A stretch of 64,000 nt of DNA from a virus, in the IMG/VR virus record IMGVR_UViG_3300001567_000138, positions 24,400 through 88,399 of that record. One strand, written 5' to 3'. Under the pieces are notes generated by a model. The model was not told where the DNA came from. It saw only the letters and a list, made by a program, of their open reading frames with translations, and ran no database searches. A program made the translations under genes and the position numbers. Shown in pieces: positions 6,578 to 24,838 of the stretch; the stretch's first letter is position 1, and each line of letters opens with the position of its first letter.

Positions 6578-7467
6578 CTAGTGGGCGTCGAGAATGAACT
6601 CCGCGTCGATGAACTTCTTGACCCTACTGCGCTTCGCCTCGCCATCGTAGAAGAGACGCATCCAGATACAGCCGAGCGGCTTGGGAGCGCCCCACCGTTC
6701 CACGTCCCACCCCTCTGTACCATCCCCATAAGAGTCCTTGTAGCCAGGGATGCGCAGATGGTTGACAACATCCCGTCCAACTGCCCCGCTTGCCGTAAGG
6801 CGTTCTCTTGCAATCGGCACGATAAACGCATCATGGGTGTGACCGTTTACAACGATATCGGCATCGGGAAGGTACACTTGCTGGCGGTTGGTCTGGATTG
6901 TGCCACGTGTGACTGGCCCGCCCCCACCTGCACCGTGGAAGTATTTCATACTGATCGACTGCTTAACTGTTTTCTGGATGGTGAACATAAAGCGTACCCA
7001 CCCACCAAATCCACCAACGATAGTTTTTCCTCCATGCTGTGAGTTCATTGCGAAAGATGTTTGCGAGGTTAAGTCCGTGTTACACTTGTCAAGAACTGCT
7101 GTTTCGTGGTTTCCTTTCGCAAACAGAGTCCATAGAGGAGCATAGGGAGCGTAGAACCCAACCGCATGACGTACAATGCGGTCGTAGTAATCGGCCCCAA
7201 CATCTTCCGGGCGCACGTCATTGAAGCTGCGCCGGGGATCAAACTTGCCCTGCATGGCATCGTGACAGTCCCCAACGATCAACGATCAGCGCCTCGCGCT
7301 CCATGGCCTTGTCAAGATGCGACTTCTCCATCTCCCCGATCACAGCGCGGGCTATCGTGATGAGCGTCTGATCGCAGGAGAACCCACTGCTGCCATCCAC
7401 TTGCAATATTGTCGAAACGAATCGTTGTTACAGCGCGCGAGGTCTGCTCTACCTTGTAGTCATTCAT
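6578..7467 (-). pseudogene. Calcineurin-like metallophosphoesterase with two apparent single-base insertions
   Basis: N-terminus MNDYK...SDAHHD (DxH) from ATG 7467, then REMEKSHLDK and VGD, GNHE, YFHG, GHTH motifs in two further frames; shifts near 7335 and 7280. Confidence 0.75.
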
Positions 7468-22210: not shown

Positions 22211-23206
22211 ATGCAGAAAACTGATCCCCGCGATGTCGTGTTCTCCCCGCCCCATGTTGGCAGGCTGACACAAACCTACCTGCAAGACAGGTGCGACCAT
22301 AAAGACGACGTGGGTATCCCCTTCGGCTTATCCACGATTGACGAGATTATGAACCCGATGCTGCCCGGCCAACTCGGTATCTGGCTAGGACGCCCCGGCC
22401 ACGGGAAAACGGCTAACATGATGCGGTGGGCAAGGCATCGAGCGCGCTGGCTCCAGATGAACGGAATGACGAATAAGGTGGTGGTGTACGCCACCTACGA
22501 GCAGACGGTCGAAGAACTCTCCGCCTTCCACGTGGCGGGCGAGATCGGCTTGAGCATTACCGATATGGCGCGTGGTAACATCTCCCCCGAAAACATGGAG
22601 GTCATCAAGGTCAACACCACGCACCGGGGAAGCCTGCCTTTGTGGTTCATCGGTCACAGCATCGAGAGGCGCAAGACCCGCCCCCGCCTGGACGTGGAAA
22701 TCCTTGACCGCGCCTTGAAGTCTATCGAAGAGTGGGAAGCGGAAGGCGAGAGGGGCATCGAGATTGATATGGTGTTCGTGGACTATCTCCAACGGATACC
22801 CTACATCGGCAAGCCGGAGAGCAAGGTTGTGGGGACGGGAGAAATCCTCAACGCCCTGAAAGATATGACCCTCAACTTCGCCTGCCCGTTTATGACGGGC
22901 GTGCAAGCGAAGCGGGAAGTAGACCTGTATACCGTGCCCATCCCGACGATGGCTGACGGCCAGTGGACTAGCGAGATCGAGCAGGCTGGCGACCTCGTAA
23001 TGACCAGTGTGCGCCCTGTCAAGTATTGCAACGAGGGCGATCCGTTCGGCTCCATCAAGGTCAAGGGGCGCAACCAAATGTGGATTGCCGTACTCAAGCA
23101 GAAGATGGGCGATAGCAACGTGGGCAAGTGGGTAGACTTCGACCCCGCCTACAACAGGCTGAACGCGATGGAAGAGACGAGCTACGACCTGAACGAGATG
23201 GAGTGA
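22211..23206 (+). CDS. dnaB: DnaB-like replicative helicase
   Basis: GRPGHGKT, VFVDYLQ, SEIEQAGD, KQK. Confidence 0.92.
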   Translation: MQKTDPRDVVFSPPHVGRLTQTYLQDRCDHKDDVGIPFGLSTIDEIMNPMLPGQLGIWLGRPGHGKTANMMRWARHRARWLQMNGMTNKVVVYATYEQTVEELSAFHVAGEIGLSITDMARGNISPENMEVIKVNTTHRGSLPLWFIGHSIERRKTRPRLDVEILDRALKSIEEWEAEGERGIEIDMVFVDYLQRIPYIGKPESKVVGTGEILNALKDMTLNFACPFMTGVQAKREVDLYTVPIPTMADGQWTSEIEQAGDLVMTSVRPVKYCNEGDPFGSIKVKGRNQMWIAVLKQKMGDSNVGKWVDFDPAYNRLNAMEETSYDLNEME

Positions 23207-23267
23207 CATTTGTCACAATCGAACATGACAGAAATCACTTGCAGATGTCAAAAACTGCTGTTATAAT
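23203..23267 (+). promoter_or_regulatory. Promoter TTGCAG-17-TATAAT with tandem boxes
   Basis: GTGACATTTGTCAC at 23203-23216 and ATGACAGAAATCAC at 23225-23238 abutting -35. Confidence 0.8.
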
Positions 23268-23274
23268 TGAGGTA

Positions 23275-23935
23275 ATCTGCAAAGGCAGAGGATGGAGGCG
23301 GTTATCGTCCGCTACAAAGAGGAGAATGTCCCTTAGAGGATCGAAGTCCCCTCCCCAAAATCTGAGCAAGGTCGATGGGTACTGCTGGCCGAAAACATGG
23401 AGGCTGACCCGATGGCAAACCGTAGGCATACGGAGTTGCGCGCCGGAGCGAAAGCGATGAAGGAGCGACGCACAGGGAAATCCACAAAGAAGCCCGACCA
23501 GCAGTCAGTTGATCTAAACACTTCATGGGAAGGTGTGACACACGTGAAACGTAACCGGATACCGAAGTGCGCTCAGATTACAAACAATGGTGGTCTTTCG
23601 ATAAGAACCGGAGGGCAACTGGCTTTGGGCAATAGAGTTAACCGGGGAACTGCCACGGCCAGCCACCAGAAAGTAGCATCGGTTGCGAAGCTGGAGCAAC
23701 GAGAGACTCCATAATCGGTAGTACAGTGTGCGGAGGTCTGACCAGGAATTAACCTGGATGGACGACTAACTACTCCGAAAGGGTTGATCCAGCAAGTGAG
23801 CCGAAGTAAAGAGACCCCACTTAGACAGGGGACAACTCACAGGAAAAGGTGGCCGATGCAGGCAATAGCGCGTGTCCTCTAAAACTATCGGTGGCTCACG
23901 TGGGCATCCGGGCGAAACCAACCGAGCGCGCAAAT
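23275..23935 (+). ncRNA. Candidate large structured ncRNA(s)
   Basis: No credible CDS; nested helices 23359-67/23571-79, 23381-88/23498-505, 23796-802/23893-99; GNRA-capped hairpins. Confidence 0.7.
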
Positions 23936-23939
23936 CATA

Positions 23940-24010
23940 GCCGACATGGTGTAATGGCAGCACAGCAAGTTCGTATCTTGCTAGTACTGGTTCAAGTCCA
24001 GTTGTCTGCT
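23940..24010 (+). tRNA. tRNA-Thr(CGT)
   Basis: Cloverleaf, anticodon arm GCAAG-TTCGTAT-CTTGC, GGTTCAAGTCC T arm; C3:U70 mismatch; CCA not encoded. Confidence 0.88.
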
Positions 24011-24020
24011 CAGTAAACAT

Positions 24021-24098
24021 AGCGAGATCGCCTAGTCTGGTCTAAGGCAACGGACTCATAATCCGTGATCGCAAGTCCAAATCTTGCTCTCGCTACCA
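24021..24098 (+). tRNA. tRNA with CAT anticodon (Met, or Ile2)
   Basis: AGCGAGA/TCTCGCT acceptor stem + ACCA; ACGGA-CTCATAA-TCCGT anticodon arm; T loop TCCAAAT. Confidence 0.9.
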
Positions 24099-24099
24099 T

Positions 24100-24340
24100 G
24101 ACCCGGCAACAGACCTGCGGAAACGCTTGCTTACTGTTGCGTAACACAGAGATAAACGGGGCCTCTGGCGGAGGAAAGCCGATAACTCAACCTCTTCGTC
24201 GGGTGGACAGGTGAAATCCGGCAAACACGTGTGAGACGTTGCCGACAACCAGGTAACTCGGATGGTTCTTGGGACGATGACGACGCCCAAGTGCAATAGG
24301 TGCTGGCGGTTGTTGGGGCCAATCCGGGCAACGTCTCTAT
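24100..24340 (+). ncRNA. Candidate structured RNA downstream of the tRNAs
   Basis: GCAACAG/CTGTTGC stem; 11-bp GAGACGTTGCC/GGCAACGTCTC closing a multi-stem domain. Confidence 0.55.
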
Positions 24341-24363
24341 GTTTCCTAGAAAGGAGAACAAAG

Positions 24364-24516
24364 ATGGCATTAATTCCATTGGACATCGAGTTCGACCAAA
24401 CGCCCGCCCGCCGGGAAGATGAGGACGACACCTGCCCCTACTGCGGGGGAACGGGGTACTCTGATGACGGTTCCTGCCCGTACTGCTACGAGGAAGAAGG
24501 CGAAGATGGAGATTGA
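24364..24516 (+). CDS. Small acidic Zn-finger protein
   Basis: AAAGGAG RBS; CPYCGGTG...CPYC. Confidence 0.7.
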   Translation: MALIPLDIEFDQTPARREDEDDTCPYCGGTGYSDDGSCPYCYEEEGEDGD

Positions 24517-24838
24517 AAAGTTGCGAGAGATTCGCCGCCGGTGTGATGCCGCGACGATTGGCCCGTGGGTGGTTGAGCAGGGCGACTACAGCGGTTCTAA
24601 CTGGCTTGTCGGTTCTCTTTTGGTTGGCTTCGATGACAAGACTCAAAAGGACTACGTTGTTCACATTACCACAGATAGTATTCACGCAAGCGAATATGAA
24701 AGCGATGGTGCGCTGGCTGATGCGGAGTTTATCGCCCATGCCCGCACCGACATCCCGGAACTGGTGAGCGAAGTTGTCCGGCTGATGCTGGTCATCGAGA
24801 AACTTACGGAAGTGCGTAAAGAAGGGAGCCAGTCGTGA
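24506..24838 (+). CDS. Ead/Ea22-like phage protein
   Basis: AATIGPW...DAEFIAHARTDIPEL. Confidence 0.7.
   Translation: MEIEKLREIRRRCDAATIGPWVVEQGDYSGSNWLVGSLLVGFDDKTQKDYVVHITTDSIHASEYESDGALADAEFIAHARTDIPELVSEVVRLMLVIEKLTEVRKEGSQS

Follow-up and report, generated by a model that had tools for sequence, protein, structure and literature searches.

To our knowledge, none of the unexplained non-coding RNAs (ncRNAs) of phage transfer RNA (tRNA) islands, be it RNAC and RNAD of phage T4, GOLLD or ROOL, has a known function. In T4, the stable RNAs of this kind (RNAC, RNAD; 'species 1 and 2') are co-transcribed and processed with the tRNAs of their cluster. One account lists them as 'RNAs of yet unknown functions' that were validated by Northern blot (PMC9697503). 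GOLLD (RF01998) and ROOL (RF03087) are large ncRNAs of phages and prophages, often located near tRNA islands; GOLLD has a 5' part that varies and a 3' part that is conserved, and its linker sometimes contains tRNAs (PMC12286853). The present contribution deals with a locus that resembles these systems in its organisation. It lies in a stretch of 64,000 nucleotides (nt), referred to as the window, which covers positions 24400-88399 of a phage record in IMG/VR (IMGVR_UViG_3300001567_000138; 88.4 kb, completeness estimate 90%). The locus itself is a gap of 1157 nt (23207-24363) between a DnaB-like helicase gene and a 50-amino-acid (aa) CxxC open reading frame (ORF).

By organisation, the closest analogues are T4 RNAC and RNAD and the GOLLD and ROOL RNAs of tRNA islands, with no membership in any of them by sequence or by model. 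As in T4, the predicted ncRNAs are encoded together with phage tRNA genes. They show no sequence similarity to RNAC or RNAD, however (blastn of the gap, taken as 23200-24370, against 50,697 phage records gave no match), the units are larger (up to ~225-240 nt) and more numerous, and the operator-controlled promoter also feeds protein genes. In contrast to GOLLD and ROOL, the locus presents itself as a chain of separable cassettes, neither covariance model matches it and its fold is a predicted one. Part of this locus might be listed in a catalogue of 8,495 candidate structured RNAs that comparative genomics drew from IMG/VR, among them tRNA-like structures and structures located upstream of genes (Fremin et al. 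2023, PMC10690425). The approach requires several copies, and no second copy of the units was found in our IMG/VR scans. We regard the locus as a set of conserved non-coding units of phages that is credibly new and unusual in its pattern of conservation, within a class of phenomenon that is already known. The case rests on fragmentary metagenome contigs and is a lead, not a discovery.

Organisation of the locus

The modules are designated M0 to M3 upstream and D downstream of two tRNA genes. The features of the locus, in window coordinates, are:

23204-23215, no strand assigned: TGACATTTGTCA, a palindromic operator site that overlaps the stop codon of the helicase gene (over-represented pattern)
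23240-23268, plus strand: predicted promoter, TTGCAG (23240-45), 17 nt, TATAAT (23263-68), from sequence reading; transcription would start near 23275
23290-23358, plus strand: M0, hairpin-like module of ~69 nt (GGAGG...CCTCC); minimum free energy (MFE) z-score -2.24; segment skipped in relatives
23359-23584, plus strand: M1, ~221-226 nt, nested helices and a second arm; closing helix 23359-67/23571-79; conserved in contigs
23585-23682, plus strand: M2, ~81-98 nt, closed by TGGTGGT/GCCACCA; found in an X9 contig
23683-23939, plus strand: M3 (candidate), ~257 nt, hairpin CCAGG-AATTAA-CCTGG and helix 23793-802/23893-902; no called ORF; MFE z-score -1.33
23940-24011, plus strand: tRNA-Thr (CGT); ARAGORN, Rfam tRNA model 56.2 bits
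24021-24098, plus strand: tRNA-Met (CAT) with encoded CCA; ARAGORN, Rfam tRNA model 60.5 bits
24099-24338, plus strand: D, ~240 nt, adjoins the tRNA and extends to the ribosome-binding site of the following gene; found in one X5 contig
24350-24366, plus strand: AAAGGAG as ribosome-binding site and start codon ATG for the 50-aa CxxC ORF, start of the downstream operon (sequence reading; ORF present in the protein collection)

The third tRNA gene of the record, tRNA-Ser(GCT) at G000:C1:1018-1108, is located outside the window and far from the Thr/Met pair.

Conservation of the modules in other metagenomes

A word index of public sequencing runs yielded 11 runs that share words with the stretch, of which four came from the probable source sample and seven from six other studies with 6-8% of the words; no RNA run was among them. 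Of the seven, runs X5, X6, X7 and X9, which represent four studies of groundwater, freshwater and unspecified metagenomes, were aligned at a likeness of at least 80% (X8, X10 and X11 were left out), with the following result:

23359-23584 (M1), six pieces in X5, X6 and X7 (three studies): 3/138, 10/106, 6/75, 9/202, 3/148 and 3/41 differences; 90.6-98.0% identity
23576-23682 (M2), X9: 1/107 differences; 99% identity
23938-24012 (tRNA-Thr), X5: 1 difference and 1 gap in 75; ~97% identity
24087-24338 (D), X5: 12/252 differences (240/252 kept); 95.2% identity

The conserved blocks have sharp ends in all four runs. Around M1, contigs continue into unlike sequence before 23359 in two X5 variants and X6, and after 23584 in X5 and X7; contigs do so after 23682 in X9 and before 24087 in X5. 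The M1 block starts at the first base of its closing helix and stops 5 nt past the last one. Between promoter and M1 the relatives have 22 other letters, so that the 81 nt from 23278 to 23358 that hold M0 are skipped, and an M0-like piece takes the place of M2 after M1 in the X5 and X7 contigs. D is present on a single X5 contig of 560 nt, on which the CxxC ORF is absent, the first 59 nt of the next gene, the only neighbouring gene that could be aligned, match at 49 positions (83%), and the preceding tRNA differs within the 30 loose letters displayed ahead of 24087. The parts 23000-23215, 23683-23937 and 24339-24504 are uncovered and uninformative, as short contigs of low depth leave such blanks.

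Judged from these alignments, M1, M2 and D behave like separate cassettes that keep tRNA-like identity (90-99%) in phage-like DNA of other habitats, amid differing or rearranged neighbours. This conservation of modules in changing surroundings is the main argument for a function, and it also argues against a single giant RNA. An initial annotation of this DNA had described one large multi-domain RNA, a view that is not supported, given the different neighbours of M1 in the relatives and the replacement or relocation of M0. Its proposal of a new large ncRNA survives in part: a new ncRNA is a reasonable assumption for a non-coding region with a phage promoter and conserved units, but not in the form of one RNA.

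The same data can be read without any function. The modules could be remnants of a larger tRNA array or other decayed sequence that was recently exchanged between phages, in which case the high identity would simply reflect a short divergence time. Sharp identity breaks are seen in mosaic phage genomes, other tRNAs occupy these positions in the X5 relatives (at loose contig ends), ARAGORN run at an 80% threshold reports weak tRNA-like folds at 23266-23360 and 24238-24333, and the fold statistics described below are near chance, with substitutions that often break predicted pairs. We nevertheless consider such functionless filler rather improbable. The same units recur in runs of four studies from different habitats as several variants that are 2-10% apart and keep the same ends, and on one contig D is 95% identical between two neighbours that have diverged much further. 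In the modules, the tRNA model of Rfam has no match at E ≤ 10, and the relaxed ARAGORN search is noisy: it also returned a false tRNA antisense to tRNA-Met. Neither the tRNA model (RF00005) nor ARAGORN at default settings matched M0-M3 or D, and only the two real tRNAs scored.

Model of the locus

The explanation that we favour, with confidence and doubt in about equal parts, is a promoter-driven array of independent ncRNA cassettes that would be co-transcribed with the two tRNAs and freed by tRNA processing, M1 and M2 being stable RNAs. The modules are probably new functional RNAs and presumably act as plus-strand RNA. Transcription would start at the operator-controlled promoter and yield a precursor that carries M0, M1, M2, perhaps M3, the two tRNAs, D and the small protein genes. 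Cuts by RNase P at the tRNA 5' ends and by an endonuclease 3' of the tRNAs would then free the upstream block and D, a release that is modelled on the stable RNAs of the T4 tRNA cluster. M1 and M2 could subsequently become trans-acting RNAs, stable and structured, with a factor of the host or the phage as binding partner, and D would either stay at the 5' end of the downstream messenger RNA (mRNA) or become a freed stable RNA like M1 and M2.

A further step, which we put forward as a tentative and somewhat doubtful possibility, is that M1, M2 and D are founders of new families of trans-acting structured phage RNAs, which would travel with tRNA genes and be kept at 90-99% identity across phages of hydrocarbon, groundwater and freshwater habitats with far more diverged proteins. 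If so, the families would suggest a target that is conserved in hosts, such as a factor of tRNA processing, translation or tRNA-directed defence. If the cassettes are truly held tighter than the phage proteins, they would add sequence-unrelated examples of tRNA-island RNAs and would imply that RNAs of this type can change places independently of one another downstream of a regulated promoter. With ~220 nt, M1 is a compact candidate and easy to synthesise.

Promoter, operator and extent of the transcript

The promoter reported by the initial annotation, TTGCAG-17-TATAAT, is present as described; a consensus promoter scan missed it because its -35 hexamer TTGCAG matches at only 3 of 6 positions. 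Sites that conform to the pattern TGACANNTGTCA with at most one mismatch occur 12 times in the window compared to 1.55 ± 1.25 in shuffled sequences, and none of 100 shuffles reached 12. Sites of the 12-bp palindrome TGACAWWTGTCA are located at 7080, 12758/12780, 23204, 31062/31085, 32116/32123/32139, 33898/33921 and 35563; they often form pairs 22-23 nt apart, and the TTG...TATAAT-like promoters after them are mostly directed towards the minus strand. These sites probably represent the operator set of a transcription regulator of the phage. Five other sites in front of operons share the layout of operator, TTG and, ~20-30 nt on, a TATAAT-like hexamer, and one of them is 73% identical to the 23204 site over 66 nt. 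The promoter segment 23226-23277 retains 47 of 52 letters in the groundwater (X5) contig and is joined there to M1. On the strength of the operator over-representation, the five sites of the same layout and the preservation in the X5 contig, the predicted promoter of the locus is a real member of a regulated promoter class that is repeated in the genome.

No terminator-like site was found on the plus strand between 22500 and 25000. The transcript therefore most likely runs into the protein genes, the first of which offers a ribosome-binding site and ATG within 26 nt after D, and the unit is accordingly not RNA-only, contrary to what had been proposed at first.

A continuous transcript of this kind also fits a purely local role, in which the upstream block and D would constitute a 5' leader or spacer RNA, without trans-acting RNA genes, that provides tRNA processing signals, protects the 5' end of the downstream mRNA after tRNA excision or serves in anti-termination or attenuation. 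Apart from the uninterrupted path between promoter and downstream genes, D ends 12 nt before the ribosome-binding site here and lies directly before the ribosome-binding site and ATG in X5, and only 22 nt separate M1 from the conserved promoter segment in the relatives, in the manner of promoter-proximal anti-termination RNAs such as HK022 put. Moreover, the two T>C changes of the relative in D weaken an 11-bp helix; in our own reading, they make a second pairing that overlaps with it (24238-44/24304-10) stronger, a hint that two folds may exclude each other. We still regard a cis-acting leader as unlikely. No riboswitch, leader or attenuator family of Rfam matches, an identity of 95-99% over 100-250 nt is rarely needed by stabilisers or spacers, neither a terminator nor a sequestering hairpin is seen at the ribosome-binding site, and the change of cassette order between relatives is better explained by independent units.

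Coding potential of the gap

All eight ORFs in or overlapping the gap are absent from a collection of 15 billion proteins, which does contain the 50-aa ORF that starts just downstream at 24364. Only one long ORF is led by a Shine-Dalgarno sequence (23412-23714, 100 aa; GGAGG 8 nt before the ATG), and this well-spaced GGAGG is what could be said in favour of one or several small basic proteins encoded in the gap. The ORF was not called by the gene callers of the collection, and in the relatives it is, by our reading, broken: a C>T change at 23466 turns CGA into TGA in its frame (X5), a second one at 23499 turns CAG into TAG (X5, X6, X7), and a frameshifting insertion of 1 nt follows 23380 (X5, X6, X7). 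The ten listed M1 substitutions fall 4/3/3 on the codon positions of the ORF, without a bias for the third position. Because of the in-frame stops and the insertion in relatives, the lack of codon periodicity and the lack of a called ORF, the stretch is non-coding, and we give the coding alternative hardly any credence. The initial annotation had seen no credible coding sequence and had named a conserved protein-coding signature as one of the observations that would speak against an RNA; the former assessment stands and no such signature is present.

Predicted folds and points against the model

The sequence features listed in the initial annotation are all present. Direct reading confirmed the helices 23359-67/23571-79 and TGGTGGT/GCCACCA; the helices 23381-91/23495-505, 23793-802/23893-902 and the perfect 11-bp helix 24233-43/24327-37 are there as well. 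The nested helices thus exist in the sequence, but their number is not above chance and the folding energies are only modestly low. Five perfect inverted repeats of at least 8 nt were counted, compared to 2.61 ± 1.57 in 300 dinucleotide shuffles (36 of which reach 5), and two of at least 9 nt, compared to 0.63 ± 0.77 (300 shuffles, 41 of which reach 2). At least as many repeats are found in 43% (k=8) and 39% (k=9) of 126 segments of the same size from this phage. The MFE z-score is -1.64 for the whole upstream part (2 of 20 shuffles fold as well) and -0.09 for the downstream part (91 of 200). For the single modules the values are -2.24 for M0 (5 of 200 shuffles are as stable), -1.92 for M1, -1.40 for M2, -1.33 for M3, -0.29 for whole D and -2.67 for inner D, figures that are flattered by module boundaries set after the folds had been seen. 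The minus strand of inner D reaches a z-score of -3.44, so that the fold signal of inner D is uninformative with respect to the strand.

Several points weigh against the array of functional ncRNA cassettes. Helix counts and folding energies are near chance. Compared with the MFE fold, three of the M1 substitutions keep a pair, four break one and three are unpaired, in relatives that are at least 90% identical; in D, one keeps a pair, five break one and one is unpaired. The closing helix of 11 bp that the initial annotation had noted after the tRNAs is perfect in this phage, but in the single relative available it is interrupted by two neighbouring C.A mismatches. The relatives themselves are short contigs of low depth, several of them read-length unitigs, and for D both its conservation and the comparison with a coding neighbour come from one contig. 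No homologue more distant than ~90% identity was found in any collection searched (phage, IMG/VR, JGI and GTDB routes). Finally, high identity with sharp ends could also stem from a recent mosaic exchange rather than selection.

Two changes affect the most confident M1 helices (pair probability 1.0), one from G-C to G-U and one from G-U to G-C. They keep pairing only if the plus strand is the RNA, and are therefore neutral only for a plus-strand RNA. By eye, two possible compensatory pairs can be recognised outside the MFE fold, at 23534/23554 (U-A to C-G) and at 24171/24179 (G-C to A-U). Such candidate changes, each of them one event among lineages that are linked, offer little proof. An alignment of M0 with M2 by MAFFT revealed no convincing homology.

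The inverted repeats, the operator palindrome and the location directly after a DnaB-like helicase gene (22211-23206; Pfam DnaB_C match at 3e-22) would also suit an element that acts as DNA, i.e. a replication origin or a cluster of binding sites, and so would an inner D whose minus strand folds as well as its plus strand. The gap, however, is devoid of iterons or direct-repeat families beyond similarity within the tRNAs, its GC content stays at 0.51-0.55 without an AT-rich dip, functional tRNA genes lie inside it and the helicase relatives in IMG/VR have nothing similar downstream. A DNA-level element is in our view very unlikely.

Comparison with known RNA families

At gathering score, the 4227 models of Rfam, run on the window, matched the tRNAs only. 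With lax filters and E ≤ 10, a search of 1301 nt (23150-24450) gave additional matches that were dismissed as noise, among them Plastid-ycf2 antisense to the tRNAs and ceN40 at E 4.4. The initial annotation had suspected a divergent member of the GOLLD or ROOL class and had suggested this very comparison with Rfam; neither threshold returned such a match. A GOLLD or ROOL RNA that has diverged and carries the tRNAs within its linker would explain the neighbourhood of the tRNAs and the layout of 660 nt, two tRNAs and 240 nt, which resembles the parts of GOLLD. A location of the GOLLD type, with two tRNAs in a gap of a phage record, is indeed present, but this feature is not specific for the family. 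The lack of a match even at E ≤ 10, the behaviour of the pieces as separable cassettes and the length of D, which is presumably much shorter than the GOLLD 3' domain, make this assignment highly improbable.

Search for more distant homologues

The helicase has 279 protein relatives, the closest of which (P0002, 77%; P0003, 66%) were found only in Logan assemblies. An alignment of 26 helicases led to 80 IMG/VR loci with helicase relatives at 37-53% identity. In these loci blastn gave only matches at E 0.78 and 2.1, nhmmer gave none, and five whole records showed no significant DNA match. Of the 18 closest helicase loci that were scanned, one contained a tRNA, at a distance of 3 kb from the helicase, and for the neighbours in loci L003-L020 one of 14 ORFs searched (helicase aside) had any tblastn match. 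Since the IMG/VR helicase relatives lack, with one exception, tRNAs and lack similar sequence beside the helicase, the cassette array is, on sequence grounds, an acquisition of this narrow lineage.

The route via the downstream gene for a 110-aa protein (24506-24838) gave 80 loci at 28-64% identity, and nhmmer detected no module match in 163 loci. The covariance model of M2 matched only itself (25 sources, 301,399 bases). Exact scans of IMG/VR with an M1 25-mer, a tRNA-Thr 23-mer and the M0 motif gave 0 matches, as did an M1 20-mer in JGI metagenomes. An M1 20-mer had one match in GTDB genomes, in a metagenome-assembled genome, which proved to be a chance match of 23 nt in coding-looking sequence with nothing wider. 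A loosened M0 motif was found in 51 metagenome stretches, most of which share one protein-coding context and none of which extends the similarity; an nhmmer match to one of them (L179; E 0.003, 17 bits) was rejected as it holds the searched motif by construction. Degenerate scans of 20 nt pick up protein motifs: the degenerate M0 motif (L166-L216, JGI) falls in a conserved coding segment of dozens of soil contigs, ...GGFARYKD.DGDG..YRTLPG.

The operator-pair pattern occurred in 35 IMG/VR stretches and a 20-mer of the tRNA-Met D-arm in eight stretches with tRNA arrays, in both cases without a module homologue. Three of the former (L222, L234 and L242, from other uncultured phages) share the paired operator motif and have tRNAs, and two of them (L222 and L242) share with this phage an identical D-arm segment of 20 nt in a 78-nt tRNA-Met(CAT). 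In all three, small genes led by ribosome-binding sites are located between the tRNAs; those between tRNA-Met and tRNA-Glu are membrane-protein-like, and there is no ncRNA at this place.

Genes downstream of the locus

Distant relatives of the 110-aa protein, with 28-64% identity over the best segment, are present in at least 118 IMG/VR stretches. It is a small protein widespread among phages and, as judged from the overlapping ORFs tested, has no Pfam match. The 50-aa CxxC ORF (24364-24516) is absent from the single related contig. On that contig an identical ribosome-binding site with an ATG-GCA start leads, within a few codons, into a homologue of the next gene (24506-24838). This difference looks like an insertion or deletion of a small gene that preserved the translation start.

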